Counted from the first letter of the stretch, positions 1 through 16,284 are shown. The stretch is 32,000 bases of DNA from Candidatus Saccharimonadota bacterium (GCA_016699205.1 CP064964.1:120001-152000), one strand, 5' to 3'. The notes: generated by a model from the sequence alone, not told the origin. Translations and numbers: made by a program.

Positions 1-1213
1 ATGTTGGTTCAGGAAAAACGGTTGTCGCGGCTTTTTGGCTGCGCATGTGCATCGACAGGGACATTCAGCTGTCTTGCTCGCACCAACAGATATTTTGGCG
101 AGACAGCACGCGCTTACATTCCAGCGCCTGTTTGCAACGCATAATATTCCATTTGCGTTGGTGACGAGAACGGAAAAGAGACTCTATCAAGGCAGAAATG
201 AGGAACCGATGAAGGTAGGGCAGATTGAATCGCTGGCGGAGCAGGGGAATATCGTGATGGTCGGCACACATGCCTTGCTTGAGAATGGGCGTTTGCCTAA
301 GGATTTGGCTCTGGCGATTGTGGATGAACAGCATCGATTTGGCGTAGGGCAGCGTGAAGCGTTATTACTCGGTTCGCGAGATGACGGGCATGTTCCGCAT
401 CTCTTATCGATGACAGCGACGCCGATTCCTCGGACATTGGCGCTGACTCTGTACGGGGATTTGGATATTTCACTCATCGTCGAAAAGCCAGCCGGACGTT
501 TGCCGATTACGACGAAAGTTTGTCATGGAGAGCAACGCGAGAAGGCGTATCAGGCGATTCGTGATGCGATCGGACGTAAAGAGAAAGCGTATATTGTTTG
601 TCCGCTGATTGATCCTTCGGATGCGCTTGGAGTTACATCGGTGACGGAGGCGTTGAAGAACTTATCGAAGGGACCGCTTGAAGGGATCAAGCTTGGTTTG
701 CTGCATGGTCGATTGAAACCAAAAGAAAAAGAAGAAACGATGGAGGCGTTTAAAAATGGCGATGTCGATGTTTTGATCGCGACAAGCGTGATTGAAGTCG
801 GCGTGGACGTTCCGCAGGCGACAGTGATCGCTATTGAAGGCGCTGAGCGATTTGGATTGGCACAGCTTCATCAATTACGCGGACGTGTCGGAAGATCAAG
901 CCTGCCGAGCTCCTGTTACTTGCTGACGGATACCGAAGGGCCTGGATTGGAGCGCTTGATGACGATGGAACGCGTACAGGATGGCTTCCGATTAGCAGAA
1001 GAGGATTTGAAGCTGCGTGGAAGCGGACAATTGCTCGGAACGCAGCAGAGCGGCCATGAGGCGCTTACCATCGCCAGAATTACGGATGGTGAAATTATTT
1101 CCCAAGCGAGAGATGAAGCTCGGAAAATTCTTGATACGGATCCAGATTTATCAAAACATCCGCTTTGGAAACGTGCCGTCGAGGGGATGCGGGACTCGGC
1201 TCACTTGGAATAG
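1..1213 (+). CDS. recG: ATP-dependent DNA helicase RecG, 5'-truncated by the window edge, with an apparent 1-nt frameshift at the T5 run at nt 32-36
   Basis: Frame 3 at nt 3-35 reads VGSGKTVVAAF (Walker A, preceded by a partial GAT codon, giving GDVGSGKT). Frame 2 from nt 32 continues FLAAHVHRQGHSAVLLAPTDILARQH, then VDEQHRFG (motif II), SMTATPIPRTL, GRLKPKEKE and QLHQLRGRVGRS (motif VI). TAG stop at 1211-1213. Confidence 0.9.
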   Translation, partial: CWFRKNGCRGFLAAHVHRQGHSAVLLAPTDILARQHALTFQRLFATHNIPFALVTRTEKRLYQGRNEEPMKVGQIESLAEQGNIVMVGTHALLENGRLPKDLALAIVDEQHRFGVGQREALLLGSRDDGHVPHLLSMTATPIPRTLALTLYGDLDISLIVEKPAGRLPITTKVCHGEQREKAYQAIRDAIGRKEKAYIVCPLIDPSDALGVTSVTEALKNLSKGPLEGIKLGLLHGRLKPKEKEETMEAFKNGDVDVLIATSVIEVGVDVPQATVIAIEGAERFGLAQLHQLRGRVGRSSLPSSCYLLTDTEGPGLERLMTMERVQDGFRLAEEDLKLRGSGQLLGTQQSGHEALTIARITDGEIISQARDEARKILDTDPDLSKHPLWKRAVEGMRDSAHLE

Positions 1214-2520
1214 AGCGCAATCGCATCTTTCAGATGCTTGCATTCAGCCGGAGTAATGAAACGTGTGAAGCCGAGGCGTTTTGCTTCTTTGAGGCGCATA
1301 TCCATGCGGGCTACAGGTCGGATTTCACCGGTTAAACCCACTTCTCCCCAAACAGCGAGATCGTCCGGAAGAGGTTTATCGAGTTTGGCCGAAGCAGCGG
1401 CCAGACAAATAGCGAGGTCAACCGCGGTTTCTTTTGCCTCGATACCGCCAACAGCATTAGCAAAGACATCTTGATCGCCAAAACCTACGCCTGCACGACG
1501 GCCCATGACGGCGAGGAGCAAACTAAGTCGATTGAGATCGATACCGGAGGCGCGGCGAAGGGGAGTGCCGTAGCCGGCTGGGGTTACGAGAGCCTGTAAT
1601 TCGACGAGAATCGGGCGCTGGCCTTCGAGAAGGCACGTGACGACGGTTCCTGGGGCTTGTTTTGGGCGGTCAGCGAGGAGGGCGGCGCTTGGATCCTCGA
1701 CAACGGAGAGGCCGGACTCGTTCATCGTTAGGAGGGCGGAGGCGTCCGTGGTGCCAAAGCGGTGTTTGGTGACACGCATCAAGCGAAACGCGTGGCTGCG
1801 GTCGCCTTCCATCATGATGACGGTGTCGACGAGGTGCTCGAGTAGACGCGGTCCGGCGAGATCGCCTTCTTTGTTTACTTGTCCAACGAGAATGACTGGC
1901 ACTCCGGATTTTTTAGCCGTTTCTGCAATCCAACCTGCGCTCGCGCGGACTTGGGACATGTTTCCTGGTTCACCTGGAACTTCTGGAGCACGCATCGACT
2001 GAATAGAGTCGACGATGGTGAGGCCGGGCTTTGTTTCAGAGATGGTTGAAGCGACAACGTCGGCAGAGGTCTCATCAAGAAAGAGCAGAGACGAGGGAAG
2101 TGTTTTAGAAAGACGTTTGAGACGTAATGAAACTTGCGAAGGGGATTCCTCACCTGTGACGTATAAAACCGTTTTTCCTTGCGCAGCAACGGAGAGTGCA
2201 AGCTGGGCGAGGAGTGTTGATTTACCGATGCCAGGCTCACCACCAAGAAGCGTGACTGATCCGGAGACAAGTCCGCCGGAGAGGAGCTCGTCCCAAACGG
2301 ATAAGCCGGTTTTATTACGGGGGATTTCTCCTGCGGCGGCGAGGTCGACAAAGGAGGATGTTTTACCTGGCTTTGATGAAGCGTGTTGCGTGACGCGTGA
2401 CGCGTGAACCTCCTCTTCTGCGACTGTTCCCCATTTTCCGCATTCTGAACAGCGCCCGGCCCATTTCTGGTACTGGGCGCCGCAATTTGTGCAAGTGAAC
2501 AATGTCTGTGGAGGTTTCAT
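1201..2520 (-). CDS. radA: DNA repair protein RadA (Sms)
   Basis: 439-aa ORF. N-terminal C4 zinc ribbon (CTNCGAQYQKWAGRCSECGKWGT), Walker A GGEPGIGKST, KHRFG (the KNRFG motif variant) and a Lon-protease-like C-terminal domain. ATG at 2520 lies 1 nt after the upstream TGA. The 3' end overlaps the recG 3' end by 13 nt. Confidence 0.93.
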   Translation of the reverse strand: MKPPQTLFTCTNCGAQYQKWAGRCSECGKWGTVAEEEVHASRVTQHASSKPGKTSSFVDLAAAGEIPRNKTGLSVWDELLSGGLVSGSVTLLGGEPGIGKSTLLAQLALSVAAQGKTVLYVTGEESPSQVSLRLKRLSKTLPSSLLFLDETSADVVASTISETKPGLTIVDSIQSMRAPEVPGEPGNMSQVRASAGWIAETAKKSGVPVILVGQVNKEGDLAGPRLLEHLVDTVIMMEGDRSHAFRLMRVTKHRFGTTDASALLTMNESGLSVVEDPSAALLADRPKQAPGTVVTCLLEGQRPILVELQALVTPAGYGTPLRRASGIDLNRLSLLLAVMGRRAGVGFGDQDVFANAVGGIEAKETAVDLAICLAAASAKLDKPLPDDLAVWGEVGLTGEIRPVARMDMRLKEAKRLGFTRFITPAECKHLKDAIALYSK

Positions 2521-2521
2521 G

Positions 2522-4048
2522 TCAGGTTACAGGACAGGCAGATCGTGGCACGGTCGGCGTGCTCACGCCATAGCCTACGGCTGTGTCTGCCACCCCGCGC
2601 GCAAACGACATGCGTGTGTCGTGGTTGGGCGGGAGAGATCGGCCTCGACGGGCGGAGTTTTCTTCCCAGAATGTCGTAGCCGCTTCATCGTATTGCTCAT
2701 TTGTTGCATTGCAACCTACTCGACGAACAACAGATTGCAGCGCTCCACCTCCGGAGTTATGGGCGAAATAGAGCAACGTCACGTAACGGTGCGCATCGGT
2801 GAGGCCGGGACAAAGACGATTAATGAGTGAGGCGCCTTGGCGCAACTGGCCGACGGAGGCCGCGGCCGTGTTGATTTCCGGGTTGACCAAACGATTGCAA
2901 TCTTCTGCACGACCGTGACTGCGCAGAGCGCATGTGTCCGGACGGACTTGAAACAATCCTGTGTAACCCCAGCGATTAGTGACACATTCTCGGAAACCAG
3001 ACTCCTTGTAAGCGACGGCTTTTAAGATACGCCAGTCCAAGCCGGCGCAACCGGCATACCTCTGGAAGAGGGAGTCATAGGTAGAGTCACTTCTGGAACG
3101 GCGAGGGGCATCGCACGAGGAGGATGGTGTACCTGCCGGTGCTTCACCAAATTCTTCCACTCCACCGGCTTCTTCCAACGTTACTCCCGCAACATATCCA
3201 AGTTCTAGCGTCTTTAGCTGGGTTGTTGCGGGACTGATCGTGTTTAAAATCGCAAACGCAGCCAAAGTGATAATCATGCCCATGATCGCATCGGTGATAA
3301 TGCGTTTTCCGTTTTGAATACTGCCTACGCCAGCCGAGCCTACGAGATAAAGAAAGCCTCCGTATACGACCATCACGATCGCGACCACGAGGATAATGCC
3401 GGTGAGATAACGATAGACAGCGTTGATGTAGCCGGCGAGAAACGCGACACGCACGACGCCGCCTTCACGCGTCGGGGCCTCGGGAGTAAAGCCGGGGATT
3501 GGGGTGCCAAGTTGGGGGGTGATAGGGACAAACTCCGGTTCAGGCGTCTCTTCTGCCGAGGAATCGGATGAGGAGGAGGGGAGTCCAACACCGCAGGTTC
3601 TTCCCGAAATTCTGTCGCCAACACATCTGATTCCTACATTACAGTCTGCATCGCTAGTACAGGCACCTCCCATTGGTTGGCGACACGTACCAGAGACACA
3701 TGTCGTGTCGCCGGCACAAGGGCGTGATTCGTTACACGATAAGCGTGTGTCGATTGTTGATGGATCAAACGGACCGCCTGATGCTCCGGTGGTGACGACG
3801 CATACGTTACGGCTAAAACCTTCCGGAGTTGCGCACGATTCCGAGGCGTTACATTCCGTTGCGGAACCAAAAATATCTGCGGGCGGAGTGCATGTCTTAA
3901 AGCAAAAACGAGAACCTACAGCTCCGATACAAATTTGTCCGGAGGGGCATGCATCCGCGGCGCCGCACGGGCCTACTTGAGCCGCAGCGGGCATTACGGA
4001 TGTAAAAAGTCCTACGACGCAAATAAAGAGTGTGAGAACGACGCGCAT
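2522..4048 (-). CDS. Secreted, membrane-anchored Cys-rich protein: signal peptide, 16-Cys head, Ser-rich linker, T4SS-pilin-like two-TM hairpin and a C-terminal lytic transglycosylase (SLT-like) domain
   Basis: 508 aa. Signal-like N-terminus MRVVLTLFICVVGLFTSVMPAAAQ. Sixteen Cys between aa 28 and 152. Hairpin: VRVAFLAGYINAVYRYLTGIILVVAIVMVVYGGFLYLVGSAGVGSIQNGKRIITDAIMGMIITLAAFAILNTI. SLT motifs: AYKESGF (catalytic Glu-Ser), GLFQV, YFAHNSGGGAL. Paralog of 4090..5691. Confidence 0.85.
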   Translation of the reverse strand: MRVVLTLFICVVGLFTSVMPAAAQVGPCGAADACPSGQICIGAVGSRFCFKTCTPPADIFGSATECNASESCATPEGFSRNVCVVTTGASGGPFDPSTIDTRLSCNESRPCAGDTTCVSGTCRQPMGGACTSDADCNVGIRCVGDRISGRTCGVGLPSSSSDSSAEETPEPEFVPITPQLGTPIPGFTPEAPTREGGVVRVAFLAGYINAVYRYLTGIILVVAIVMVVYGGFLYLVGSAGVGSIQNGKRIITDAIMGMIITLAAFAILNTISPATTQLKTLELGYVAGVTLEEAGGVEEFGEAPAGTPSSSCDAPRRSRSDSTYDSLFQRYAGCAGLDWRILKAVAYKESGFRECVTNRWGYTGLFQVRPDTCALRSHGRAEDCNRLVNPEINTAAASVGQLRQGASLINRLCPGLTDAHRYVTLLYFAHNSGGGALQSVVRRVGCNATNEQYDEAATTFWEENSARRGRSLPPNHDTRMSFARGVADTAVGYGVSTPTVPRSACPVT

Positions 4049-4054
4049 ATTTGT

Positions 4055-4083
4055 ATTTTACATTAAAAAACCCGATGGACCAA
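4055..4083 (-). promoter_or_regulatory. Sigma70-like promoter (TTGGTC-N17-TAAAAT) ending 6 nt before the ATG of 2522..4048; predicts a leaderless mRNA
   Basis: The minus strand reads TTGGTC (4083-4078), a 17-nt spacer, TAAAAT (4060-4055), ACAAAT, then ATG (4048). It lies inside the 41-nt gap after the upstream stop. Confidence 0.45.
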
Positions 4084-4089
4084 TTGATA

Positions 4090-5691
4090 CTAAGGGTTTC
4101 CCATTGGACGCCATGCCCAAATACAGATTTTTGGATTAGCACGATTGCGTGACGACGATACAAGATTCGACAGGTATGATCTGGCGCTGCTGTATGCCTG
4201 CATTCCACTCAATGTAACCTCCAGGCCTGCATTTTCAGAGGCTCTCCGGCCTCCACCGGAAGAAATATCCCCGCGTCCACCTGAACCCATCTCCATCATC
4301 TCATACCCAAGTCCTGCGCCGCCCGTGTACATGAAAACGTGTCCAGCATTTTCACCGATATACGAAATAACATCTCCAAAACGCAGACGCGAAATAACAC
4401 CATCGATATGACCTTCTGTAATTGTTCCGCCTAAGTCATCACGCTCCAGTCGAAAAACGTAGAGTGACTCGTCTGAGGGACCTTGAGGTCTACAATTTCC
4501 CCCAACATTTGTAGGCCGATTTCCCATAACACGAGTGCGTCCTTCAGATCCGGCAAAACACATGTACAGATCACGTACAGTCGTCGCACAGTCTCCGCAA
4601 AGGAGTCCAGCCGTGTTTGCCCTTGAGGTCACCAGTCGATCGTATTCAGCCCTCCAGGCGCTTAAACACTGAGTGTCGTTAGATGCAACGAGTTGATTAC
4701 AGGGGCTCGTCAATCGAACGTTTCCCTCAAAGCCTTCAAGGAGCCCGCGTAGGTAATTCGCCTGACCGTGATTACCACGACAGCTTGCGTCTCCACCTCT
4801 TATATAAATCGCACCTCCCTCATCTGCGCCAACCGTTTTCCAGACTCGTACAATTTCTTTTAGTTTCTCTACCTTTTGAGGGTAAGACAGCGACATGCCG
4901 TTGCGTGACCCACAGACTGCCAACATTCGCGCTCGCCAAGTCCCGGCTTCACCGCCGGCGGGAAGGTCTGAAGCAGATCTATAAGCTTCCTCATCTCCTA
5001 GCGAGCCTAAACTTTCCTGAAGTCTAAAATCGAGCTCCACACGTTTTACAAATGCTAATTCCAATACCTTTAGATTTGTTGTATCCGGATTAATAATGTT
5101 CAAGATTCCGAAAGAAGCTAAAATGAGGAGCATCCCCACGATCGCATCCGTAATAATTTTTTTCCCTCTTTTGATTTCTCCGATTCCTGCGGAACCGCCA
5201 AGATAGAGGAAGCCTCCGTAGACGCACATAACGATCGCGATGACGAGCGCGATGGTCGCAAGATATCGATACGCGGCATTAATGTACTCTGCTAAAAATG
5301 CGACTCGAACTAGACCACCCTCTTGTGACGCTGGGGTTAAGCTGCCACCAGGAATCGGCACCCCGAGTTGTGGGGTGATCGGCACAAAGGGTACCTCTGT
5401 TACAGCCTCTTCCGTAGATTCCGATGAGGAGCTTGGAGGAGCTGAGAGTTCACAGACATCTTGTCCGATTCCGGTTGGGCGTCCGCACGATTCTCCAGCA
5501 GGGCACGCATCGATTGCGCCGCTGGCGGCTGCTGGATTGCAGGTTCTATAGCAGAGACGGGAGCCTTCCGGACCTACGCAAACTTGGCCGGGCGCACAGG
5601 TATTTGTACCACTACACGGACCGACTTGCGCGTGTACGCCCAACGGCAAAACGATCGCTGTGATGCAGATCGCGATGCGAAGGAACCGCAT
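4090..5691 (-). CDS. Secreted, membrane-anchored Cys-rich protein: signal peptide, 8-Cys head, Ser-rich linker, T4SS-pilin-like two-TM hairpin and a C-terminal putative NlpC/P60- or CHAP-like cysteine peptidase domain
   Basis: 533 aa. N-terminal half is collinear with 2522..4048: AQVGPC..C.PGQ.C.G..GSR.C..TC, FVPITPQLG.PIPG, EGG.VRVAFLA.YINA.YRYL, VYGGFLYL.GSAG.G.I..GK.IITDAI.GM. C-terminal part has GLLCGDCATTVRDLY (candidate catalytic Cys) and GDVISYIGENAGHVFMYTGG (candidate His), resembling the papain-like amidase pattern. Confidence 0.8.
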   Translation of the reverse strand: MRFLRIAICITAIVLPLGVHAQVGPCSGTNTCAPGQVCVGPEGSRLCYRTCNPAAASGAIDACPAGESCGRPTGIGQDVCELSAPPSSSSESTEEAVTEVPFVPITPQLGVPIPGGSLTPASQEGGLVRVAFLAEYINAAYRYLATIALVIAIVMCVYGGFLYLGGSAGIGEIKRGKKIITDAIVGMLLILASFGILNIINPDTTNLKVLELAFVKRVELDFRLQESLGSLGDEEAYRSASDLPAGGEAGTWRARMLAVCGSRNGMSLSYPQKVEKLKEIVRVWKTVGADEGGAIYIRGGDASCRGNHGQANYLRGLLEGFEGNVRLTSPCNQLVASNDTQCLSAWRAEYDRLVTSRANTAGLLCGDCATTVRDLYMCFAGSEGRTRVMGNRPTNVGGNCRPQGPSDESLYVFRLERDDLGGTITEGHIDGVISRLRFGDVISYIGENAGHVFMYTGGAGLGYEMMEMGSGGRGDISSGGGRRASENAGLEVTLSGMQAYSSARSYLSNLVSSSRNRANPKICIWAWRPMGNP

Positions 5692-5695
5692 AGGT

Positions 5696-6367
5696 TTAAA
5701 AAATACGCGCCTTTAGGATCGCCCACTGGAATTCTCCTGCTTTGACGTAGCCGGTCAGGCTTTCATCGCCAATAAAAAATGTTGGGGCTCCGGTCATTCC
5801 GTGGTCTTTGGCGAGCTGGATATCGTTTTGAATATCGATGATGTGGCGGCCGGACTGAACGCACGTGTTAAAGGAGGAGACGTCGAGGCGCAGTTCCGTG
5901 GCCTTTGCCTGCAGAGATGGGAGATCGATCGTGCTCATCTTGAGGAGCGCGTCATGCATGTCCCAGAATCTGCCTTGGTCGTTTGCGCAACGTCCGGCGG
6001 AGGCGGCGAGGATGGCGTCGGGTCTGTCGCTTGCGACGGGCATATCGCGCCAAACGTGGCGGATACCCGTGGGATAGGCTGCAAGAATTGCGACGAGCTC
6101 CGGTTCCGACGCTCGGCAGTAGGCGCAGGTATAGTCGGCAAATTCTACAATGACGATTGCGTCTGTCGACGTGGAGCCGCGAGCGGGATCGGTAGAACGG
6201 ATCGGGGGGAGTTGCGGCGCACCGAGTTGCGAGTCGGGAGTGTAAGCGGGACGCGTACCTGCTTGGAACGTCGAGACAGCACGGAAGATCAGGCTCCACG
6301 CCAACAACAAGCTCAACACGCCAAAGATGCCGAGAAATAGCCAAAGGAGACGGTTCCGATCGTCCAT
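5696..6367 (-). CDS. Membrane-anchored DsbA-like thiol:disulfide oxidoreductase (thioredoxin fold, CAYC active site)
   Basis: 223 aa. N-terminal TM LLWLFLGIFGVLSLLLAWSLIF, then VIVEFADYTCAYCR (CxxC), and GAPTFFIG near the C-terminus (cis-Pro loop region). The stop is 4 nt from the next ATG (TAA-ACCT-ATG). Confidence 0.85.
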   Translation of the reverse strand: MDDRNRLLWLFLGIFGVLSLLLAWSLIFRAVSTFQAGTRPAYTPDSQLGAPQLPPIRSTDPARGSTSTDAIVIVEFADYTCAYCRASEPELVAILAAYPTGIRHVWRDMPVASDRPDAILAASAGRCANDQGRFWDMHDALLKMSTIDLPSLQAKATELRLDVSSFNTCVQSGRHIIDIQNDIQLAKDHGMTGAPTFFIGDESLTGYVKAGEFQWAILKARIF

Positions 6368-6370
6368 AGA

Positions 6371-7606
6371 TTACAAGTCAAAGCGAATCAGCCGTCCGCT
6401 GATTTGATCGGTGAAGATTGCGGAGCGGCCATCTGGCGTAACGCTCATGTTTTGCACGGCGGCACCGCCTTGTGGCTGACCAAGGTTGATCTTTTCTCCC
6501 GTAGCCAAATTGATTTTCCAAATTTCGTCTGGGTTGTTCTGAAATATTTCTCGCTGGAGTCCGGCACCCTGTCCCAATCGAGTTGGTACGCCACAAATAA
6601 GCGTTTGCTCGCCCTGCCACGTGCACTTGTCTGCCCACGTGTTGATCTGGAGGTTTATGCGGTTAGCATTAATAGAATCGCCGGCGGCGCCGCTGACCCA
6701 AAGTGTTGGAAGGTAGTTATTTGCGCTGGTATGCACGGAGTACAAGAGGTTTTGACCGGAAGGAGCCCAGTTGGGAATAAATCCGCGGCCTTCTACGACC
6801 AAGCCTTTGAAGTTTTCTTGATTTTGACCAAGCAAAATAATCTGCTGACGATCAAGACCGAGCGGTTCCCCTGTAAAGGAATAGGCGACAATTTGATTAT
6901 TTGGCGACCAGCTGGAATGGACTTTGTTTTGATTCTCCCCAAGGCTTTCAATTGGACGAGCATTGGTTCCATCAGGATTTGAGACAACGAGAAAGCGATT
7001 ATCCTCATTGTTGCCTACGCTTTTGGCGACGATACGGTCATCGTCTGGAGAAAATTGAAAATCTTCCCAGTGTTTTGGAAGCGTCACCTGACGATCGTTG
7101 GAGAAATCATAGAGAATGTTGGAACCGTCCGGATAGTTGATGATCGCTTTGTCCGAAGAGTTGCCCCAGGCGACGGTATCGACATTGAAAAATGTTTGAT
7201 TGCTCATGGGAACAGACTCGCCGCTTGTTGAGATGCGATAAAAACGTCCGTCTTCCGGATTGTAGCCACGGATTTGGCCGTTTTGTGAAACCGAGACAGA
7301 GCGTGTCGGGGTCGAGCGGAGGACTTGGGTGCGGGGAGCGGTGGGGATTCCTGTTGGAATAGAAGGCACGAATGGCGTGCCTGGTTGAACCGGCAAACCA
7401 CCGGGACCGGTCGGAGTCGTCGTAGCAACTTGGGGACCGCCCGTACCTGCCGAAGGCAAGGTACCGCCAGGCTGAATGGTACCCGTAGGCGGTGTCACGA
7501 CCGCTCCTGGTGGACGGAAGAATACCCAATAAATACCGAAGGCGATTCCAATAACAACCAGAAAAAAGCCTACGATCAAAAGGACACGTTGCAAGCGTTC
7601 GTTCAT
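6371..7606 (-). CDS. N-terminally anchored TolB-like / PD40 beta-propeller repeat protein
   Basis: 411 aa. TM VLLIVGFFLVVIGIAFGIYWVFF, a Pro/Thr/Gly-rich linker, then repeated PD40-type motifs: FSPDDDRIVAKS, WSPNNQIVAYSF, WAPSGQNLLYSV, VTPDGRSAIFTD. Confidence 0.8.
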   Translation of the reverse strand: MNERLQRVLLIVGFFLVVIGIAFGIYWVFFRPPGAVVTPPTGTIQPGGTLPSAGTGGPQVATTTPTGPGGLPVQPGTPFVPSIPTGIPTAPRTQVLRSTPTRSVSVSQNGQIRGYNPEDGRFYRISTSGESVPMSNQTFFNVDTVAWGNSSDKAIINYPDGSNILYDFSNDRQVTLPKHWEDFQFSPDDDRIVAKSVGNNEDNRFLVVSNPDGTNARPIESLGENQNKVHSSWSPNNQIVAYSFTGEPLGLDRQQIILLGQNQENFKGLVVEGRGFIPNWAPSGQNLLYSVHTSANNYLPTLWVSGAAGDSINANRINLQINTWADKCTWQGEQTLICGVPTRLGQGAGLQREIFQNNPDEIWKINLATGEKINLGQPQGGAAVQNMSVTPDGRSAIFTDQISGRLIRFDL

Positions 7607-7612
7607 AGAACG

Positions 7613-7621
7613 ATTATAGCA
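7613..7621 (-). promoter_or_regulatory. Extended -10 box TGCTATAAT, 6 nt upstream of the ATG of 6371..7606 (leaderless configuration)
   Basis: The minus strand reads TGCTATAAT-CGTTCT-ATG. It sits in the 30-nt gap after the stop of 7637..10045. Confidence 0.55.
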
Positions 7622-7636
7622 CGAATGGGCTTTGGA

Positions 7637-10045
7637 TCAGAACAAATCGATCAGTTCAGATAAGCCAAAGGATACACTCGAAACAGCCCCTGTAACCGAG
7701 GCAATAAATATAATCACTCCCATGATCGCCGAAAGAACGGCTAAGCAGACCAGAATATCGAAACAAAGGATAACGCCGCACTCATAGGGATATCCGGCGC
7801 GTGGCGTAAACGGTAGGTCTCTTTTAAAAACCGTGAGTATGAGTCGGATATTCAAGTGCGCGACCGTGAGCAAAATACCAACAACATCCGCCGCACCGTG
7901 AACGGTGTCGAATGCGTCAACGAGGTTAGAAAACGTCTTTTTTGCCGTTTGAATTTTTTGCTTCTGACTCTCTGCTTGGTCAGCAGCGATTTGGCCGTTT
8001 TTCTGATTCTGCTGTTGTTGACCCTGCCGTTGGATGGCCTGAGCCGTGGCTTGCTGCAAAGCTGCGGCACGGGCTATTTCCTGTTGAGAGGGGCCCACGG
8101 GCGGACGAGGCCGCTCGGCTGGTGTCGAGATTGTTGCAGACTCACTTGAAGGCCTGTTTTCGATACCGGAATCAAAGCGCTCTGTCTGACGCGGCTCAGT
8201 CGACAAACTCTGATTGATCTCCGACATTCGTGAACGACCTTCTTCTTCACGAGCGCCGTAGATGTCAGCTGGCTCGTCTTCTTCATCATCAGCACCGGCG
8301 GCGTAGGTCTGGGTTTGGGCTTGCGGCGTGTCGAGTGGTCCGGAAAAGGGCGCAAGTCCTCCTTCTGTGGCAAGCGCTTCTTCAGACGAGTCGCTGAGCG
8401 TGCTGTCTTCATAAGCCTGTTGACCAGCGCCGCGATCATAGGCTTGATCGGCGTTGAAATCAGCTGCACGACGAGCTTGGCCGCCAAGCGTCGACAAGCT
8501 TCCGCCAAGCGGGCGGAGCGGTTTTGGCGAGCGAATGGCCGGATTTGCCGCGGATGCGGTTGGACGAGTCGGGATTCCGGGAGCGTAGGCTCTCGGTCGA
8601 GCAACTCTTGGGGGAGTAGGGAGCGCGGCTGAAGCGGCAGCGGCACCGCCTTGTTGCATTCGCGGAGCAACAGATGGCAGCCTCGGCAATAAACGCTGAA
8701 CCGCAAGAACTTTTGCTTCTGGAATTTCACCGCTCTTATCAGGGACAAGTTCTTCGACGGCTTTTACAATCAATGCTGCCTTATTGTTTTCGTTAATGGC
8801 CGTGACTTGAATGTCGGTTTGCTGATCGAGCAAGGATCGGCGCTCGCTTTGCGCCTGAACCATCTGCTGCTCGTAGACTACGGCCTGACCGCCATCGCCA
8901 CCTGCCAACGATTGACGAGATCGCTGCTGTAAATCGTTAATGCGATTGGAGACGTCGGAAATCTGATTAGATAATTCCTGGATTTGGTTTTGACGATTCG
9001 CCGCAGAATTTGCGTAAGTCGCCAATACATTTTGTGCAGCCGCGATGGCAGCGTTTGCTCCGGTATTTGTCGCCGGAATTGTTGCGGCGACGGCAGCTAC
9101 AGCGGCGACGGCTCCCTGCGCGACTGCGCCCGATGCAGCACGGGACTGTTGAAGCGCCTCGCGCGTTGCACGAATTGAGGTCTGCGATGAGGAGGGGATG
9201 GTCGCTGTCGTTTCAATCGTGGCCTCGACATCCAGCGGAGCGGTAACCGCCGGAATCGCAACATCAACATCGGTTAGGGCGATGGATTGGCCACTCGATG
9301 ATAGGTACTCGATTTGCGAAGGCTGTATGGACGAAAGCGTCGTTTCCAGCTGACGCAACACTTTTCCATCCGTATCGACGGACAAAGAAACCGTACGCTG
9401 ACCAGGCGGATCCTGAATCGTAATACGACCCTGCTCAAACGCGCGCTGAATTTGAGCGGTTTTATCTTGATCGATTTCTCCGCCTTGATCCTGAATGATG
9501 CGCGGCTCTTTTGAAGCGGATCTTGATCTTGCGCGAGAGGTAGATGGGGTCGCGAGAGGATTTCTTGAAAGATTCTGCGTGCTGCGCAGCATCTCCCCGG
9601 ATTTCATCCAGCGAGGACCCTCGGCGTCGCTAACGAGAACTTCATCGCTCTGTGCATCGTAGCCGATGACTTGAGCGGATTTTCCATCGAGAGCAACACT
9701 TTTACCAAAGTAGCCGCTTACGGCTTTGGAAAGATTCTTTTTGGTTTTGCGACCGGAAGCCAAATCACTTTCACGCTGGGCATCGAGAAGCGTTTTATAT
9801 TGCTCGTAGGGGATTTGGATGTTTTCAACGGTATCGCCGGATCGACGGACAGCACGGACGGTATTTCGCAAGCTGTCGTAGCCGATAATGGTGACGTTGC
9901 GCGTGGCTTTTGGACCAACGGTTAAAAACGTCCCAAAAGAGACGTCCTTACCGGGTTGGTCTGCCTCTGATGAATCATCGCTTTGCGGCGTTTCATCGAT
10001 TGGCTCCTCATCCGGAAGCGGCTGTACTTCTGCAGCATCCGCCAT
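7637..10045 (-). CDS. Large hypothetical protein: acidic N-terminus, two IGYD-containing repeats, Ala/Gln-rich coiled-coil-like and Pro-rich disordered core, C-terminal TM segments
   Basis: 802-aa uninterrupted ORF with no signal peptide. Repeats: FGTFLTVGPKATRNVTIIGYDSLRNTVRAV and YFGKSVALDGKSAQVIGYDAQSDEVLVSD. Heptad-like stretch NRQNQIQELSNQISDVSNRINDLQQRS. C-terminal hydrophobic stretches VVGILLTVAHLNIRLILTVF and GVILCFDILVCLAVLSAIMGVIIFIASVTGAV. No family recognised. Confidence 0.75.
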   Translation of the reverse strand: MADAAEVQPLPDEEPIDETPQSDDSSEADQPGKDVSFGTFLTVGPKATRNVTIIGYDSLRNTVRAVRRSGDTVENIQIPYEQYKTLLDAQRESDLASGRKTKKNLSKAVSGYFGKSVALDGKSAQVIGYDAQSDEVLVSDAEGPRWMKSGEMLRSTQNLSRNPLATPSTSRARSRSASKEPRIIQDQGGEIDQDKTAQIQRAFEQGRITIQDPPGQRTVSLSVDTDGKVLRQLETTLSSIQPSQIEYLSSSGQSIALTDVDVAIPAVTAPLDVEATIETTATIPSSSQTSIRATREALQQSRAASGAVAQGAVAAVAAVAATIPATNTGANAAIAAAQNVLATYANSAANRQNQIQELSNQISDVSNRINDLQQRSRQSLAGGDGGQAVVYEQQMVQAQSERRSLLDQQTDIQVTAINENNKAALIVKAVEELVPDKSGEIPEAKVLAVQRLLPRLPSVAPRMQQGGAAAASAALPTPPRVARPRAYAPGIPTRPTASAANPAIRSPKPLRPLGGSLSTLGGQARRAADFNADQAYDRGAGQQAYEDSTLSDSSEEALATEGGLAPFSGPLDTPQAQTQTYAAGADDEEDEPADIYGAREEEGRSRMSEINQSLSTEPRQTERFDSGIENRPSSESATISTPAERPRPPVGPSQQEIARAAALQQATAQAIQRQGQQQQNQKNGQIAADQAESQKQKIQTAKKTFSNLVDAFDTVHGAADVVGILLTVAHLNIRLILTVFKRDLPFTPRAGYPYECGVILCFDILVCLAVLSAIMGVIIFIASVTGAVSSVSFGLSELIDLF

Positions 10046-10051
10046 GTGCGG

Positions 10052-10060
10052 ATTCTATCA
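10052..10060 (-). promoter_or_regulatory. Extended -10 box TGATAGAAT, 6 nt upstream of the ATG of 7637..10045 (leaderless configuration); likely the operon promoter
   Basis: The minus strand reads TGATAGAAT-CCGCAC-ATG (ATG at 10045-10043). Confidence 0.5.
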
Positions 10061-10125
10061 CGGGCGGGGGACATTGACATTTCGGGTTTCTCATGACAGT
10101 TTCCTTTGGCACATTTGGAGGCGAT

Positions 10126-10677
10126 ATGAAGACGCTCATACTTGTCCGACACTGTCAGAGCGACTGGAACGCAATCAAGCGTCTAAGCGGCCAGGACGAC
10201 ACGGCGCGACTAAACGAGGAGGGGAAAGGTCAGGCTATCAAGCTCGGGATGCAGTTGCTTGCAGCCACGTCGGAGTTCTCACACATTGTGTGTTCGGATC
10301 TCGAGCGTGCGCAGCAGACAGCGCATTTTCTCCGTGAAGCACTCAATGTACCGATCCTGACCGAACCCCGCTTCCGCGAGGTCCATCTCGGCAGTCTTGA
10401 CGGCAAGACTCGCGAAGAGATTCTGTCGACAGATCGAGGCAGAGAGTTGCTCGACTCGCTACATAGGGCGTATGACTTCCGCGAATTCGGCGGCGAGTGT
10501 AGCGACACGGTGCTGGATCGGCACCTGAAAGCTGTCGAGGAGGCGCTAAAAAGCTGTCCGGATGGCTGCACAATGGTTGTGGTCGGACATGGCAGCTCGC
10601 TGCGGACACTGCTCCGACACTATCACCCCGATCGCGATCTACACGCACAAGGCGGTTACGACTCCGTTCTCATCTGA
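10126..10677 (+). CDS. Histidine phosphatase family protein (phosphoglycerate mutase-like)
   Basis: LILVRHCQSDWN (RHG-type catalytic His motif) and VVGHGSSLR (second His). I prefer ATG 10126, which is preceded by GGAGG at 10117-10121. The ORF track starts at ATG 10093. Confidence 0.85.
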   Translation: MKTLILVRHCQSDWNAIKRLSGQDDTARLNEEGKGQAIKLGMQLLAATSEFSHIVCSDLERAQQTAHFLREALNVPILTEPRFREVHLGSLDGKTREEILSTDRGRELLDSLHRAYDFREFGGECSDTVLDRHLKAVEEALKSCPDGCTMVVVGHGSSLRTLLRHYHPDRDLHAQGGYDSVLI

Positions 10678-10680
10678 ATA

Positions 10681-10710
10681 AGCCCGGTCCGATATATTTC
10701 GGACCGGGCT
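10681..10710. terminator. Perfect 11-bp hairpin between convergent genes (bidirectional terminator candidate)
   Basis: AGCCCGGTCCG-atatattt-CGGACCGGGCT. It lies 3 nt after the stop at 10677 and 6 nt before the minus-strand stop at 10717. No clear U tract on either side. Confidence 0.55.
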
Positions 10711-10716
10711 TGCTCG

Positions 10717-11517
10717 TTACGATACTTTTATTGTGTTCTTGGTTACCTTCAACGTTCCTTTTTTCTTGTTTGGATGCTCGATCAGCATTTCCGACAAAAG
10801 CGACATCACTTCACGCTCGACGATGCGCCGTGCGGCTCGAGCTCCTTCATCAGTCGAGAATTCGCGCTTCATGAGCCAGTCGAGGACGTCGTTGCCAGCG
10901 GAAAGCGCGACATCCTGAGCCTCTTTCACACGGCTCAAAATAATATCCAGTTCGCGTCGGACAATATTGCGCAAGGTTTCCGACTCAAGCGGTTTGAAGA
11001 CAACGATGCGATCGAGACGATTCAAAAGCTCGGGGCGGAATCGCTCTTTGAGCTGGGTGCGGACGAGGGATTCAAATCCGTCGGTAGAATCGCCAAAGCC
11101 GAGGGAAGAACGATTTAAATACTCTGCGCCGACATTGGAAGTGAGCACGATGTAGGCATGGCGGAAGGGGATATGGCGGCCTGTTCCGTCCGTGATTTTT
11201 CCATCTTCAAGCGCCTGCAAGAGCAGATGCTGGACATCAGGATGAGCTTTTTCGAATTCATCGAACAAGAGAACCGCGTGCGGATGTTTGCGGATCGTAT
11301 CGGCGAGGCGGTTGCCTTCACGGAAGCCAACATAACCAGCCGGAGAACCGAGTAACTTGGAAACAGAGTGACCTTCTGCAAATTCCGACATGTCGAGCTT
11401 CACTAAGGGCGTCTTCACGGCCAAACAACTCATGCGCGAGCGCTTTTGCGAGTTCGGTCTTACCGGTTCCGGAAGGACCGACGAACAAGAAGCTGGCACG
11501 CGGACGTTTTGGATCAC
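10717..11517 (-). CDS. clpC: ClpC/ClpB-type AAA+ chaperone, C-terminal fragment (real coding starts near 11406 after a frameshift)
   Basis: [44 protein letters not shown] (Walker B), GRHIPFRHAYIVLTSN, RPELLNRLD (sensor 2 region). It continues the NBD2 begun in 11318..13237. Confidence 0.9.
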   Translation of the reverse strand: MIQNVRVPASCSSVLPEPVRPNSQKRSRMSCLAVKTPLVKLDMSEFAEGHSVSKLLGSPAGYVGFREGNRLADTIRKHPHAVLLFDEFEKAHPDVQHLLLQALEDGKITDGTGRHIPFRHAYIVLTSNVGAEYLNRSSLGFGDSTDGFESLVRTQLKERFRPELLNRLDRIVVFKPLESETLRNIVRRELDIILSRVKEAQDVALSAGNDVLDWLMKREFSTDEGARAARRIVEREVMSLLSEMLIEHPNKKKGTLKVTKNTIKVS

Positions 11518-13237
11518 TCAAACCGAGACGGGATTTGCGTACCGTTTCAGCCACTTCTTTTACAACATGATTCTGGCCAAAGATTTTTTTGGCGAGATTA
11601 CCTTCCATTCCGCGCAGCTGCTCGCGCTCGGCCTTGATGACTGATTCGTATGGAACGCGGGCAAGACGAGCAACGATACGCGCTACGTGCTCAACGGTTA
11701 CAGTCGGACGATCTTGTTTGCGCGTTTCTGCCATCGATTTTTCAATACGGCGCTTTTCTGCAAGCAAGCGCTCTTCATTCTCAAGCGCTTGGGAAGCATC
11801 CGGCAGAGAACCGTCGACAACGGCTGCTTCTTTGGATTCGCGAAGGACATCGAGGGCGATTTCCAATGCGCGAAGACGCTCAACGGATTCACGCGAGCGG
11901 CGGCGGGCATTTACGTAAGCGGCGGCTTCATCAAGAACATCGATAGCCTTGTCCGGGAAAAATCGATCTGTGAGATAACGCTCTGATAAACGGATGGCAG
12001 CTTCAAGGGCATCCGGCGCATAACGGACGCCATGATGCTCTTCATAACGTGTTTTCAGGCCTTGGAGCATCTTCCCTGCGAGTTCTGCTGTCGGTTCCGG
12101 GACATCGACGGGCTGGAAGCGGCGCTCAAGTGCCGCGTCTGGTTCCAAGTGCTTTTTGAATTCATTCCAGGTTGTTGCACCGATACAGCGGATCTCCCCA
12201 CGAGCCAATGCAGGCTTTAGGATATTGGCCGCATCGAGAGAACCTGACGTTGATCCGGCACCAACTAGATTGTGGATTTCATCGATAAAAAGAATCGCTG
12301 TCGGATCAAGGCGCACTTCCTCAACAAGCTGCTTTAAGCGGGCTTCAAATTCACCACGATACATCGTACCGGCAACCATGAGAGCAAGGTCGATGGCGTA
12401 GACACGCTTACCCTGCAGAACATCCGGAACATCACCAGCTGCCAGGCGCTGTGCCAAGCCTTCGACAATCGCGGTCTTACCGACACCCGGCTCGCCGAGT
12501 AATATCGGATTATTTTTGGTGCGGCGGCAGAGAATTTCAATCACGCGGTCAGTTTCTGCATCGCGGCCGATCACAGGATCGAGATTTGCGACTGTGTCCG
12601 GAGCCGTGAGTTCCCGTGCAAAGATTTCAACCGCACGCGGACGTTTGTCGCGTGCGACGCGTCCATGCTGCGGTTGATTTGGAGCAGCATTCGGTGCCGA
12701 GTGAGCCGGAGGCGCCACCTCTGGATTCTCCCCAGAAGGGGGGAGACTCCCAACTTCTTCACGAGCAAGGAGGTCGGGGAAGCGCGAGGTGTTGCGCAAA
12801 ATATGCACGAGCTGCTCTTTAGCCAAATCCAAATTCATGCCATGCGATTCTAAAAACGTATGGACATCCGGAAGTGAGCTTTCGAGAAGCGACAAGAGAA
12901 GATGCTCGGTACCGACATAGCGATGCTCGTGGACATGTGCCATCAGAACACATTTCTCCAGAATGCGGCGGACCGCAGGGGAAAGATCAGGAGCAATCGG
13001 ACTACCTGGCTCATGCGGCTTTGGAAAGCCACGGAAGGCGGACTCGGCCTTCTTGGCGTCGACATTTGATTTATTCAAAAGTTCGGCAGCAATGGAACCA
13101 TGCTGCTGGAGCAAGCCGACTAAAAGATCACCCGGGTCGACGGCGTCGCGACCGCTGCCGATCGCAAACGCGAGCGCGTGCTGTAATGCCTCGCGCAGAT
13201 GTCCCGTAAAACGGGAGAGAAATTCATTGCCGAGCAT
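11318..13237 (-). CDS. clpC: ClpC/ClpB-type AAA+ chaperone, N-terminal fragment (Clp_N repeats, NBD1, short middle domain, start of NBD2)
   Basis: Clp_N repeats ([21 protein letters not shown]). NBD1 [24 protein letters not shown] and [11 protein letters not shown]2 Walker [28 protein letters not shown]. After ~11406 the translation becomes nonsense ([11 protein letters not shown]...), while the +1 frame continues correctly. Confidence 0.9.
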
Positions 13238-14916: not shown

Positions 14917-16284
14917 ATGAATGCGACGATTTTCAAAGCCTATGATATTCGCGGCCTCTCACCAGGAGAATTGGGTCCGGCAGAGGCTGGACGCATTGGG
15001 GCGGCTTTAGCACGCATCCATCGACCTAAGACCGTCGTGGTTGGACATGACATGCGCATAACCTCGCCGGAACTTGAAGAAACGCTCATACAAGGACTGA
15101 ATGCGCAGGGCGTGAATGTCGTACGTATCGGACTTTGTACAACGCCGATGTTTAATTTTGCGGTCGCAGAATCCAACGGCGAATATGATATGGGTGTCAT
15201 GGTTACTGCATCACACAATCCGGCGAAATATAATGGATTAAAAATCACAAAAGGCGATAACACGGCGATTGGGCAGGGGAGCGGCATGGAGGAATTGCGC
15301 GATCTCGCTTGTGGAGGTGAGCCGATTCCACAATCGAACATGCGCGGGACTGTCGAGAATGATGACGATCTGCTTGAGCGATACATCGAGGCGATCTGGT
15401 CGCGAAGCAAACTCGAGGGTGATTTATCGAGCTGGAAAATTGCGATCGATGCGGGGAATGGGATGGAGGGGTTGGTGCTGCCAAAGCTATCGAAGAAACT
15501 TGGCGCCGATGTTCATGAACTGTATTGGAAGCTTGATGGAAATTTTCCCAATCATGAAGCAAATCCGGTGAAGATCGAGACTCTCGCTGACTTACAGGAT
15601 GAAGTGAAGTCCAAAGGTTGCGTGTTAGGAGCGGCGTTTGATGGTGATGGCGATCGTGTTGGTTTTGTTGATGAGAAAGGCGAGGCGATTCCTGGAGATA
15701 TTCTGACCGCGCTTTTTGCGAAAGCCATTCTCTCTGAACAAAAGGGCGCAAAGGTTTTATATGACTTGCGATCGTCTAAGAGCGTCAAAGAAGTGATCGA
15801 AGAAGCGGGGGGAACGGCGGAAATGTGCAAAGTCGGTCACGCGGGCATCAAACGACAGATGCGTGAGACGGGTGCGGTGTTTGCAGGCGAACTCTCGATG
15901 CATTTTTACTTTGCGGAGTTTGCAAATTGTGAAGCTTCCGACTATGCGATGTTACTTCTCATCCGCCTGATGCTGCGCGAGGGAAAGCCGTTGTCGGAAA
16001 TCTGGAAACCGCTCGTGCGTTATGCGCATTCGGGCGAAATTAATTTCACGGTGAGCGACAGCAAAGCCGCGCTCGAAAAAGTCGCCTCACACTACACGCC
16101 TCACGCTACAAGTGTTTCCCATCTCGACGGCGTGCGCATCGACATGGGGGATTGGTGGTTTTCGTTGAGGGCGTCAAATACGGAGCCGTTGATTCGGTTG
16201 AATCTTGAGGCGAACACAAAAGAGATAATGGATAATAAACTTATTGAACTACGAACATGCTTGGCATCTTTGATTCAGGCGTAG
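14917..16284 (+). CDS. Phosphomannomutase / phosphoglucomutase (alpha-D-phosphohexomutase family)
   Basis: FKAYDIRG, VTASHNPAKYNGLK (active-site Ser loop), FDGDGDRV (Mg site), GELSMHFYF and RASNTEP. Confidence 0.92.
   Translation: MNATIFKAYDIRGLSPGELGPAEAGRIGAALARIHRPKTVVVGHDMRITSPELEETLIQGLNAQGVNVVRIGLCTTPMFNFAVAESNGEYDMGVMVTASHNPAKYNGLKITKGDNTAIGQGSGMEELRDLACGGEPIPQSNMRGTVENDDDLLERYIEAIWSRSKLEGDLSSWKIAIDAGNGMEGLVLPKLSKKLGADVHELYWKLDGNFPNHEANPVKIETLADLQDEVKSKGCVLGAAFDGDGDRVGFVDEKGEAIPGDILTALFAKAILSEQKGAKVLYDLRSSKSVKEVIEEAGGTAEMCKVGHAGIKRQMRETGAVFAGELSMHFYFAEFANCEASDYAMLLLIRLMLREGKPLSEIWKPLVRYAHSGEINFTVSDSKAALEKVASHYTPHATSVSHLDGVRIDMGDWWFSLRASNTEPLIRLNLEANTKEIMDNKLIELRTCLASLIQA

Follow-up and report, generated by a model that had tools for sequence, protein, structure and literature searches.

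Background

Most Patescibacteria carry a type IV secretion system (T4SS) of an MPF-FATA-like (mating-pair-formation) kind, with VirB2-like pilins detected by the Pfam family T4SS_pilin (PF18895), according to a 2025 survey (PMC12102498). The survey found VirB1 homologs only rarely near virB4 and concluded that such a hydrolase may be dispensable for the pilus; comF, recG and radA are frequent members of the T4SS loci of class ABY1 (PMC12102498). Patescibacteria are commonly epibionts with cells described as monoderm, i.e., without an outer membrane, and their T4SS has been proposed as a possible route of nucleotide or DNA import (PMC11665869). In Southlakia, a T4SS with multiple pilins is essential, and competence is dispensable. 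Here we describe a gene cassette in a 32,000-nucleotide (nt) stretch of DNA (CP064964.1, 120001-152000; hereafter "the window"), in which predicted cell-wall hydrolases are fused to pilin-type membrane hairpins and are encoded next to a DsbA-type oxidoreductase and a beta-propeller. Although PF18895 pilins, SLT and NlpC/P60 domains, DsbA, propellers and the Patescibacterial T4SS are all already known, the fusion architecture, the domain swapping, the fixed partnership with DsbA, propeller and a variable third protein, and the class-wide synteny reported below were not found in the searchable literature, and the main text of PMC12102498 makes no mention of a pilin-hydrolase fusion.

A cassette conserved across one Patescibacterial class

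The window is chromosomal DNA of Candidatus Uhrbacteria (Patescibacteria; candidate phyla radiation, CPR), and its 533-amino-acid (aa) cassette product has exactly the sequence of a protein recorded as "hypothetical protein IPH19_00695" in a Candidatus Uhrbacteria bacterium. Open reading frame (ORF) calling verified a run of six minus-strand genes separated by 30, 3, 4, 41 and 1 nt, in agreement with the coordinates and gaps of a preliminary description made from the sequence. In the order of transcription these are:

7637-10045, minus strand: X-slot protein, 802 aa, low-complexity N-terminal part and conserved C-terminal membrane module
6371-7606, minus strand: membrane-anchored seven-bladed beta-propeller, 411 aa, PD40/tricorn type (AlphaFold2 and Foldseek)
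5696-6367, minus strand: membrane-anchored DsbA-type thiol:disulfide oxidoreductase, 223 aa (Thioredoxin_4 and DSBA hidden Markov models, HMMs)
4090-5691, minus strand: hairpin protein 1 (g533), 533 aa, T4SS_pilin module and predicted divergent NlpC/P60-like domain
2522-4048, minus strand: hairpin protein 2 (g508), 508 aa, T4SS_pilin module and SLT domain
1201-2520, minus strand: radA, DNA repair/recombination helicase (TIGR00416, 1e-137, above cut-off), the final gene of the co-directional run, 1 nt past hairpin protein 2

Close packing of genes means little alone, and tight spacing was rejected as evidence on its own, since CPR genomes are compact. What argues against chance is the conservation of gene order across species-level loci. 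A scan of species-representative genomes yielded 55 loci, mapped by our own ORF calls and BLAST, of which 54 have an intact propeller ORF. Synteny in relatives had been proposed as a check on the preliminary description, and the genes do stay together: hairpin proteins are located between propeller/DsbA and radA in 47 of the 54 loci (one in 21, two in 18, three in 7 and four in 1), as expected of a conserved unit and not of a chance neighborhood. The radA gene lies downstream of the propeller in 48/54 loci, including loci without hairpin proteins, clpC lies at most three genes upstream in 33/54, and a convergent recG is present in most loci with enough sequence to show it. The close relatives (L001 and L003) show the same order inside the same housekeeping block, which alone proves little. 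More distant relatives, whose propellers are 48-59% identical, also keep the order of variable protein, propeller, DsbA, hairpin protein and radA, and one locus (L007) retains it though both flanks differ. A cassette of four protein families is thus conserved across one class of Patescibacteria, including Uhrbacteria, Magasanikbacteria, Falkowbacteria and relatives, which corresponds roughly to GTDB class ABY1.

Hairpin proteins carry a pilin-type module

The two paralogous hairpin proteins share one architecture: a signal peptide, a Cys-rich head, a ~110-aa module of the T4SS_pilin family (PF18895) with two transmembrane (TM) segments, and a predicted wall hydrolase. Their parts, all on the minus strand, are:

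Hairpin protein 1, residues 1-21: signal peptide
Hairpin protein 1, residues 22 to ~95: head with 8 Cys
Hairpin protein 1, residues 96-215 (window 5047-5406): T4SS_pilin-type module
Hairpin protein 1, residues 216-533 (window 4093-5046): predicted NlpC/P60-like domain, with conserved Cys368 (codon at 4588-4590) and His451 (codon at 4339-4341)
Hairpin protein 2, residues 1-23: signal peptide
Hairpin protein 2, residues 24 to ~165: double Cys-rich head
Hairpin protein 2, residues 166-285 (window 3194-3553): hairpin module
Hairpin protein 2, residues 327-449 (window 2702-3070): SLT lytic-transglycosylase domain, with predicted catalytic Glu349 (codon at 3002-3004)

By hydropathy, the TM segments are located at residues 144-162 and 179-197 in g533, joined by the loop GSAGIGEIKRGKK, and at residues 218-236 and 250-268 in g508. 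The loop joining the helices is short, basic and rich in G, K and R, so both flanking domains are predicted to lie outside the membrane. A signal peptide followed by two hydrophobic helices with a short basic loop is a pilin-type feature, and is present in both proteins. The module consensus is P.L.V.IPGL...PFLAQYI.A.Y.YL.GI...AAA.M.VYGGFLYI.GS....V..GK.II.DAI.GL.L.LGAY.IL...NP.

The T4SS_pilin profile aligns over positions 7-71 of its 71 to both window copies, with scores of 17.7 bits (g533) and 20.6 bits (g508) against a cut-off of 26.6, whereas orthologs exceed the cut-off (27.6, 26.8, 28.8 and 32.8 bits). Among the 57 aligned modules, 48 match T4SS_pilin at E ≤ 1e-3 (best 5e-11), and one also matches TrbC/VirB2 (PF04956). 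Judged by these profiles, the assignment to T4SS_pilin appears solid at the level of the family and borderline for the two window copies. A search of the hairpin profile against solved structures by sequence gave nothing meaningful. With 533 and 508 aa, and with a head of 60-140 aa and an enzyme of 220-320 aa around the hairpin, the proteins differ from small stand-alone pilin subunits, and no free small pilin was found in the 32-kb window. The total Cys content is 19 and 25 residues, respectively. HMMs, topology and Cys counts therefore uphold the earlier view of two paralogs that combine a disulfide-rich head, a VirB2/TrbC-like two-TM hairpin and a hydrolase; its pilin component holds for the family and its orthologs, while the window copies themselves stay below the cut-off.

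Complementary hydrolase domains and their exchange

The SLT domain of g508 is recognized directly (PF01464; E = 5.5e-9 with the full-length protein, 9.2e-10 when only the C-terminal part is taken; scores of 36.1 and 38.6 bits, cut-off 21.3). Its motifs include KESGF at 348 (K-E349-S-G-F), GLFQV at 364 and HNSGG at 430, and residues 173-507, spanning hairpin and SLT, are 81% identical to the same-slot protein in L003. The PHROG profiles added two weak endolysin-type matches only, both on the SLT region. With a score above the cut-off and the catalytic motifs in place, g508 is predicted to be the glycan-strand cutter, a lytic transglycosylase, that had been suspected in one of the paralogs.

The C-terminal domain of g533 has no Pfam match, and no direct match to NlpC/P60 (PF00877). 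Searches of the 533-aa protein and of a profile of its C-terminal domain against solved structures by sequence gave nothing meaningful. Twelve homologs share an invariant Cys164 (CGDC), His247 (GHVFMYTG) and Glu263 (EMG) in domain numbering. In the AlphaFold2 model of the domain (predicted local distance difference test, pLDDT, 85; predicted template-modeling score, pTM, 0.86), the Cys is at the N-terminus of helix 164-185, the His is in strand 246-251, and His and Glu are on consecutive strands, which is the papain-like layout. The weak top Foldseek matches in the PDB are nearly all papain-like as well (phytochelatin synthase, tegument deubiquitinases, MepS, IdeS, PLAAT3 and a CHAP lysin).

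The domain profile had only 113 matches among 1.84 billion representative proteins, nearly all of them C-terminal in proteins of 400-900 aa. Of the remote matches, 77 were scanned, and 44 contain T4SS_pilin and five contain NLPC_P60. One protein, P0262, was found by the domain profile at 2.2e-6 over residues 16-182, and its NLPC_P60 domain (7.3e-12, residues 36-136) lies inside the profile-matched region. Alignment of the g533 domain with P0262 by hhalign (95.6% probability, E = 1.1e-8) pairs CGDC with DCSSF and GHVFMYTG with GHVMLYVG, so that catalytic Cys and His coincide. The NlpC/P60 reading is based on homology via such intermediates, not on a direct family match. This transitive homology and the model support a rare, divergent NlpC/P60 peptidase, predicted to cut the stem peptide, which gives substance to the probable papain-like peptide cutter of the preliminary description. 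The domain constitutes a small family (113 representative clusters in 1.84 billion) with no match in Pfam, NCBIfam or PHROG. Complementary bond specificity of the two paralogs, one cutting glycan and the other peptide, is a supported prediction.

Comparison of paralogs and orthologs shows that head and hairpin are conserved and the C-terminal domain is exchanged. Among 88 hairpin proteins, the C-terminal domains are VanY (8), Peptidase_M15 (7), SLT (5), Peptidase_C39_2 (3), glucosaminidase (3), Amidase_2 (2), and M15_4, 3D and NLPC_P60 (1 each), and about half match no Pfam family. The hairpin is thus a reusable platform for swappable wall enzymes. Some copies are inverted, and the copy number varies from 0 to 4 per locus. 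We also observed an FGE-sulfatase domain (formylglycine-generating-enzyme-like) in place of a recognizable wall hydrolase in 9 of the 88 proteins (e.g., loci L020-L036). In two metagenome loci (L076 and L079), a GDSL/SGNH domain (DUF459) stands N-terminal of the hairpin, and the C-terminal part is long and contains Cys.

DsbA as a probable partner of the hairpin proteins

The 223-aa protein is matched by Thioredoxin_4 (8.8e-16, 59 bits against a cut-off of 23.2) and DSBA (1.2e-13, 51.7 against 25.6). Its CAYC motif occupies residues 81-84 (window 6116-6127), and a TM segment spans residues 10-28. The membrane-anchored DsbA-like oxidoreductase recognized earlier from CAYC is accordingly confirmed by HMMs above cut-off and an N-terminal TM segment. 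A reoxidizing partner (DsbB or VKOR) was not found among the annotated ORFs of the window.

DsbA adjoins the propeller directly in 41/54 loci. The median Cys content of the hairpin proteins is 3.24%, compared with 0.72% in 648 other ORFs of the same loci (~4.5-fold, P = 2.8e-43). In three metagenome contigs (L076, L077 and L082), DsbA is encoded immediately ahead of a hairpin protein, and neither propeller nor radA is present there. The pairing in an unrelated context and the Cys enrichment are the strongest evidence for a joint function of DsbA and the hairpin proteins, and they support the idea of an oxidoreductase placed beside its probable multi-Cys substrates. From these sequence patterns, DsbA can be considered a credible partner of the multi-Cys hairpin proteins.

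Propeller and X-slot protein

The AlphaFold2 model of the 411-aa propeller (pLDDT 84.9) comprises a TM helix (3-29), a disordered linker (39-88) and seven blades (90-411). The best Foldseek match is tricorn protease (6.7e-11), followed by WD40 proteins. We found 699 homologs; the best 120 of the 699 are 47-100% identical and nearly all ~410 aa long, and identity falls to 34-38% in the most distant loci. On sequence identity, the propeller is by far the most conserved member of the cassette. It had been described as an N-terminally anchored propeller of PD40/TolB type. The anchor and the PD40/tricorn-type fold stand, whereas TolB is too specific: the NCBIfam TolB model (TIGR02800) scores 25 bits (8e-6) over 100 residues only, against a cut-off of 343, the model has no extra domain, and no tol or pal genes were recognized among the window ORFs. 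TolB identity was therefore rejected in favor of a generic propeller of PD40/tricorn type.

The 802-aa protein has no match in Pfam, NCBIfam or PHROG. Its N-terminal part of ~700 aa is of low complexity and rich in Ala, Ser and Gln, and a conserved membrane module occupies residues ~690-802 (window 7640-7978), with TM-like segments at 721-739 and 764-782. There is no signal peptide, so the ~700-aa part is most likely cytoplasmic. The early picture of a disordered or coiled-coil giant with C-terminal TM anchors is retained, except that the protein appears mostly cytoplasmic. Built from the last 130 aa, an iterated HMM picks up 36 of the 45 same-slot proteins in other loci, and among all locus ORFs it matches only proteins adjoining the propeller or its flanking hairpin gene. 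Such recruitment indicates that the protein is a member of a genuine family, whose hallmark is a C-terminal membrane module of ~100 aa. The X-slot protein is the least conserved cassette member, with lengths of 190 to 1137 aa across loci, and only this TM module is kept, a small family with no model in Pfam, NCBIfam or PHROG. A VirB6- or VirB3-like identity was also considered for the 802-aa protein and was rejected, as no HMM supported it.

Links to type IV secretion and type IV pili

Decisive here are three of the deepest-branching loci (L053, L057 and L059; propeller 35-38% identical), which contain a co-directional series of a PrgI-like gene (2.2e-5), a ~220-aa ORF, VirB4, ORFs of ~190 aa and ~210-234 aa (the latter not called in L057), a hairpin protein of 276-414 aa with PF18895, and the propeller. 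The VirB4 of these loci is 64-69% identical to a DUF87/AAA_10/TraG-P-loop protein. Past the propeller, radA and then recG follow in L053, DsbA and then recG follow in L059, and the contig ends in L057. Another locus (L047) shows VirB4, one gene, DsbA and radA, and separately the propeller followed by a ComFC-like gene (DZR_2 and Pribosyltran domains). In a close relative, K8R04 (L063), a TraC-like gene and VirB4 lie 6.3 kb past radA.

Five loci (L041, L047, L051, L054 and L056) lack hairpin proteins, and their propeller gene is transcribed away from a type IV pilus operon (PilM 1e-44, PilB 5e-124, PilC 1e-54). The propeller is followed by radA in these loci (with DsbA in L041), or by the ComFC-like gene in L047. 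Genes for an envelope-spanning appendage and recombination genes are thus recurrent direct neighbors of hairpin protein, propeller and DsbA. The preliminary description recognized no named system. None is indeed named, yet the set is not an orphan and belongs in the orbit of the Patescibacterial MPF-FATA-like T4SS, because L053, L057 and L059 link it to VirB4 and because PF18895 pilins, radA, recG and comF occur in ABY1 (PMC12102498).

We also observed that the sequence of close relatives becomes variable after a 169-175-aa ORF, AhpC and a helix-turn-helix gene past recG. The insertions beyond recG include a TraC-like gene, VirB4 and two small genes (L063, 17041-21761), and a sortase, a SET-domain gene and a phage-type integrase (L064, 18454-21449), which suggests that this region is an integration hot spot.

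Genomic setting in the window

Features around the cassette are:

35-1213, plus strand: 3' part of recG, convergent with radA, ORF running off the window start
10052-10080, minus strand: candidate cassette promoter, ATGTCA-17-TAGAAT with TG (consensus scan and sequence)
10126-10677, plus strand: histidine-phosphatase gene (His_Phos_1, 2e-36), between the 802-aa gene and clpC on the opposite strand
10680-10711: perfect GC-rich hairpin AAGCCCGGTCCG...CGGACCGGGCTT after the histidine-phosphatase gene, which could terminate transcription both ways
10717-13237, minus strand: clpC, split into ORFs of 639 and 266 aa with the AAA_2 domain divided
14917-17015, plus strand: wall-precursor genes glmM-like and murI, divergent from the lemA-htpX-clpC-cassette run
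17468-18632, plus strand: rseP, split into ORFs of 198 and 260 aa
23586-27142, plus strand: dnaE, split into ORFs of 562 and 620 aa
27715-29064, plus strand: RNase-J-like MBL/beta-CASP gene, split into ORFs of 144 and 290 aa
29971-31023, plus strand: 350-aa protein with N-terminal TM segment and a weak Glyco_hydro_42 (beta-galactosidase-like) match (1.1e-7), possibly a surface glycosidase

The recG equivalent of relatives contains RecG_wedge, DEAD and Helicase_C domains, and this flank is kept along with the cassette. Only 6 nt separate the end of the -10 element in the candidate promoter from the start codon (ATG) of the 802-aa gene, which would allow a leaderless transcript. Consensus scanning of the region gave 8 promoter matches with 8.8 expected by chance, and the promoter is thus a lead only; the terminator scan was likewise at chance level (15 found, 16.3 expected). 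With both counts at chance, the scans define no operon boundaries. In relatives, clpC ends 12 nt ahead of the gene equivalent to that of the 802-aa protein. The divergent glmM-like/murI arrangement is kept in many related loci, where PGM_PMM domains are found in the glmM-like product. The housekeeping genes elsewhere in the window are glmM-like, murI, rseP, pheS, pheT, dnaE, the RNase-J-like beta-CASP gene and an EamA transporter. The ORFs of the split genes overlap or closely adjoin, and relatives have single ORFs (838-aa ClpC, 385-aa RseP); the four splits are most likely assembly indel errors rather than pseudogenes. A phage or mobile-element origin of the cassette was rejected, given the lack of phage families and the stable clpC-radA position across species.

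A proposed wall-opening module and its alternatives

With slightly better than even confidence, we interpret the cassette as a wall-opening module, anchored by pilin-type hairpins and matured by DsbA, that is tied to the T4SS of Patescibacteria. The hairpin proteins would be exported by Sec via the cleavable signal peptide. The VirB2/T4SS_pilin-type hairpin would insert as TM1, short positive cytoplasmic loop and TM2, leaving head and enzyme both outside, where the adjacent membrane-anchored DsbA (CAYC) would oxidize the many cysteines. The SLT domain would cut the glycan strand and the NlpC/P60 domain (Cys368/His451) the stem peptide, and together they would open a local hole in the wall. Local wall opening is the job of two-domain VirB1-type hydrolases in the T4SSs of single-membrane bacteria, and would here be split over two proteins. 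The propeller and the X-slot protein, as obligate neighbors, may position or restrain the hydrolases, perhaps in a physical complex with them. The wall opened is preferably read as the cell's own rather than that of a host. A disulfide-dependent surface apparatus that opens peptidoglycan had been hypothesized at the outset; the conserved unit, the extracytoplasmic placement of the hydrolases and the DsbA partner agree with it, while a surface apparatus as such, and the identity of the target wall, are what we infer.

Several observations weigh against this interpretation. As the preliminary description had stated for the VirB4/VirD4-type ATPases, the annotated 32-kb window contains no VirB4, VirB6, PrgI or VirD4, and most Uhrbacteria-like loci lack a VirB4 within 10 kb. 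Close relatives vary in the region past recG, which contains an integrase in L064, and the VirB4 of the K8R04 relative may belong to a mobile element. The window hairpin copies fall below the Pfam cut-off for T4SS_pilin, and a Foldseek search of the NlpC/P60-like model against the PDB and BFVD (viral) returned nothing at E ≤ 1e-3. The five hairpin-less propeller loci beside type IV pilus genes mean that the role of the propeller may be independent of the hydrolases. Finally, the flanking housekeeping genes (glmM, murI, lemA, htpX and clpC) fit ordinary wall maintenance equally.

Such maintenance is the essence of the strongest alternative, unlikely in our judgment though to be taken seriously, that the set is a housekeeping autolysin module with the hairpin as a mere anchor, serving growth, septum splitting or turnover of the cell's own sacculus with no tie to a T4SS. 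It agrees with the housekeeping block, where glmM and murI are divergent upstream and lemA-htpX-clpC co-directional upstream, and with the scarcity of VirB4 within 10 kb. Non-orthologous replacement of catalytic domains is usual among Firmicutes autolysins. A membrane-tied cytoplasmic protein beside external hydrolases also recalls, by analogy only, divisome-controlled hydrolases such as FtsEX-PcsB. However, the anchor is specifically of the T4SS_pilin family (48/57 modules), and in the deep-branching relatives the hairpin protein comes shortly after VirB4 in the same direction. Variation from 0 to 4 copies, inversion of some copies and fast domain exchange would be unusual for an essential division enzyme, and some lineages have the propeller without a hairpin hydrolase.

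Host-directed lytic display is doubtful. Here the hairpin proteins would assemble with small VirB2-like pilins into a T4SS pilus, or be released from it, and would expose their exchangeable hydrolases and Cys-rich binding heads to a host or partner cell, whose wall they would open to attach, feed or transfer. An equally doubtful form of it makes them minor subunits among small VirB2-like pilins, a "lytic pilus" that passes through the host or partner wall for feeding or DNA exchange, its filament carrying interchangeable DsbA-stabilized hydrolases and Cys-rich binding heads, and the propeller serving as a membrane assembly platform. In VirB2/TraA-type pilins, both termini are exposed on the filament exterior and can accept fusions, as known from F-pilus structure and epitope display. 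Polymorphic effectors show the same combination of a conserved N-terminal module and fast-swapped C-terminal enzymes, the Cys-rich heads vary, Patescibacteria are often epibionts, and the multi-pilin T4SS is essential in Southlakia. Nevertheless, enzyme domains of 25-35 kDa at one or both subunit ends would hinder helical packing, the window contains no free small pilin and no consistently adjacent immunity-like gene, and nothing found indicates that the proteins leave the membrane. To our knowledge, no host is known for Uhrbacteria.

The adjacency of clpC and radA is old and also present in Firmicutes (ctsR-mcsAB-clpC-radA-disA in Bacillus subtilis), so radA may be a passive neighbor. This, together with the absence of comEC and comEA at the cassette locus and with Southlakia, where competence is dispensable and the T4SS essential, makes it highly improbable that the cassette is the envelope part of DNA uptake or transfer, with type IV pili or a T4SS outside and RadA, RecG and ComF inside, even though radA follows the propeller in 48/54 loci, recG is convergent in most loci reaching that far, the propeller faces the PilM/PilB/PilC operon in five loci (L041, L047, L051, L054 and L056) with a ComFC-like gene in L047, comF, recG and radA occur in ABY1 T4SS loci (PMC12102498), and nucleotide/DNA import by the T4SS has been proposed (PMC11665869).

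A T4SS-tied wall-opening module would bear on a large share of bacterial diversity, which Patescibacteria represent, and on a T4SS that is essential in the one species tested and has unexpected pilins. The cassette suggests where the missing wall-opening activity may reside in one large class, namely fused to pilin-type hairpins, and the hairpin may be viewed as a natural display platform for extracytoplasmic enzymes. The ties to the T4SS, to type IV pili and to the recombination genes radA, recG and comF are testable. Should host walls be the target, these enzymes would count among the candidate factors that set host range.

Comparison with known systems

Like TolB of the Tol-Pal system, the cassette includes a PD40-type beta-propeller outside the cytoplasmic membrane. 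Unlike TolB, this propeller has seven blades and a TM anchor, and has neither the N-terminal alpha/beta domain nor Tol/Pal partners. Polymorphic toxins and effectors, including the wall-degrading antibacterial T4SS effectors of Xanthomonas, similarly combine a conserved N-terminal part with swapped wall-degrading C-terminal domains. In contrast, the cassette proteins are predicted to be Sec-dependent and membrane-anchored, with no XVIPCD-type signal, VirD4 or adjacent immunity genes.

The Patescibacterial VirB2-like pilins, such as the arrays of Southlakia epibionticum and Nanosynbacter lyticus, share the PF18895 hairpin family with most cassette-type modules (48/57 at E ≤ 1e-3), come from the same phylum, are Sec-exported, and are encoded on the chromosome as tandem paralogs of low mutual identity. 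Those pilins are small and stand-alone, whereas the cassette proteins are 400-900 aa long, have an enzyme or lectin-like domain after, sometimes before, the hairpin, and come with a dedicated DsbA and propeller.

The VirB1-type hydrolases (PrgK of pCF10, TraG of pIP501 and CwlT of ICEBs1) are also membrane-tethered and extracytoplasmic, and open the wall locally with a glycan cutter (SLT/muramidase) and a Cys-His peptidase (CHAP/NlpC-P60) (PMC12102498). They have a single N-terminal TM segment, whereas the cassette proteins have a signal peptide and a VirB2-like two-TM hairpin, and a Cys-rich head is added. In the cassette, the two predicted activities lie on two paralogs, the genes do not adjoin virB4 in this genome, and the catalytic domains are freely exchanged between species.

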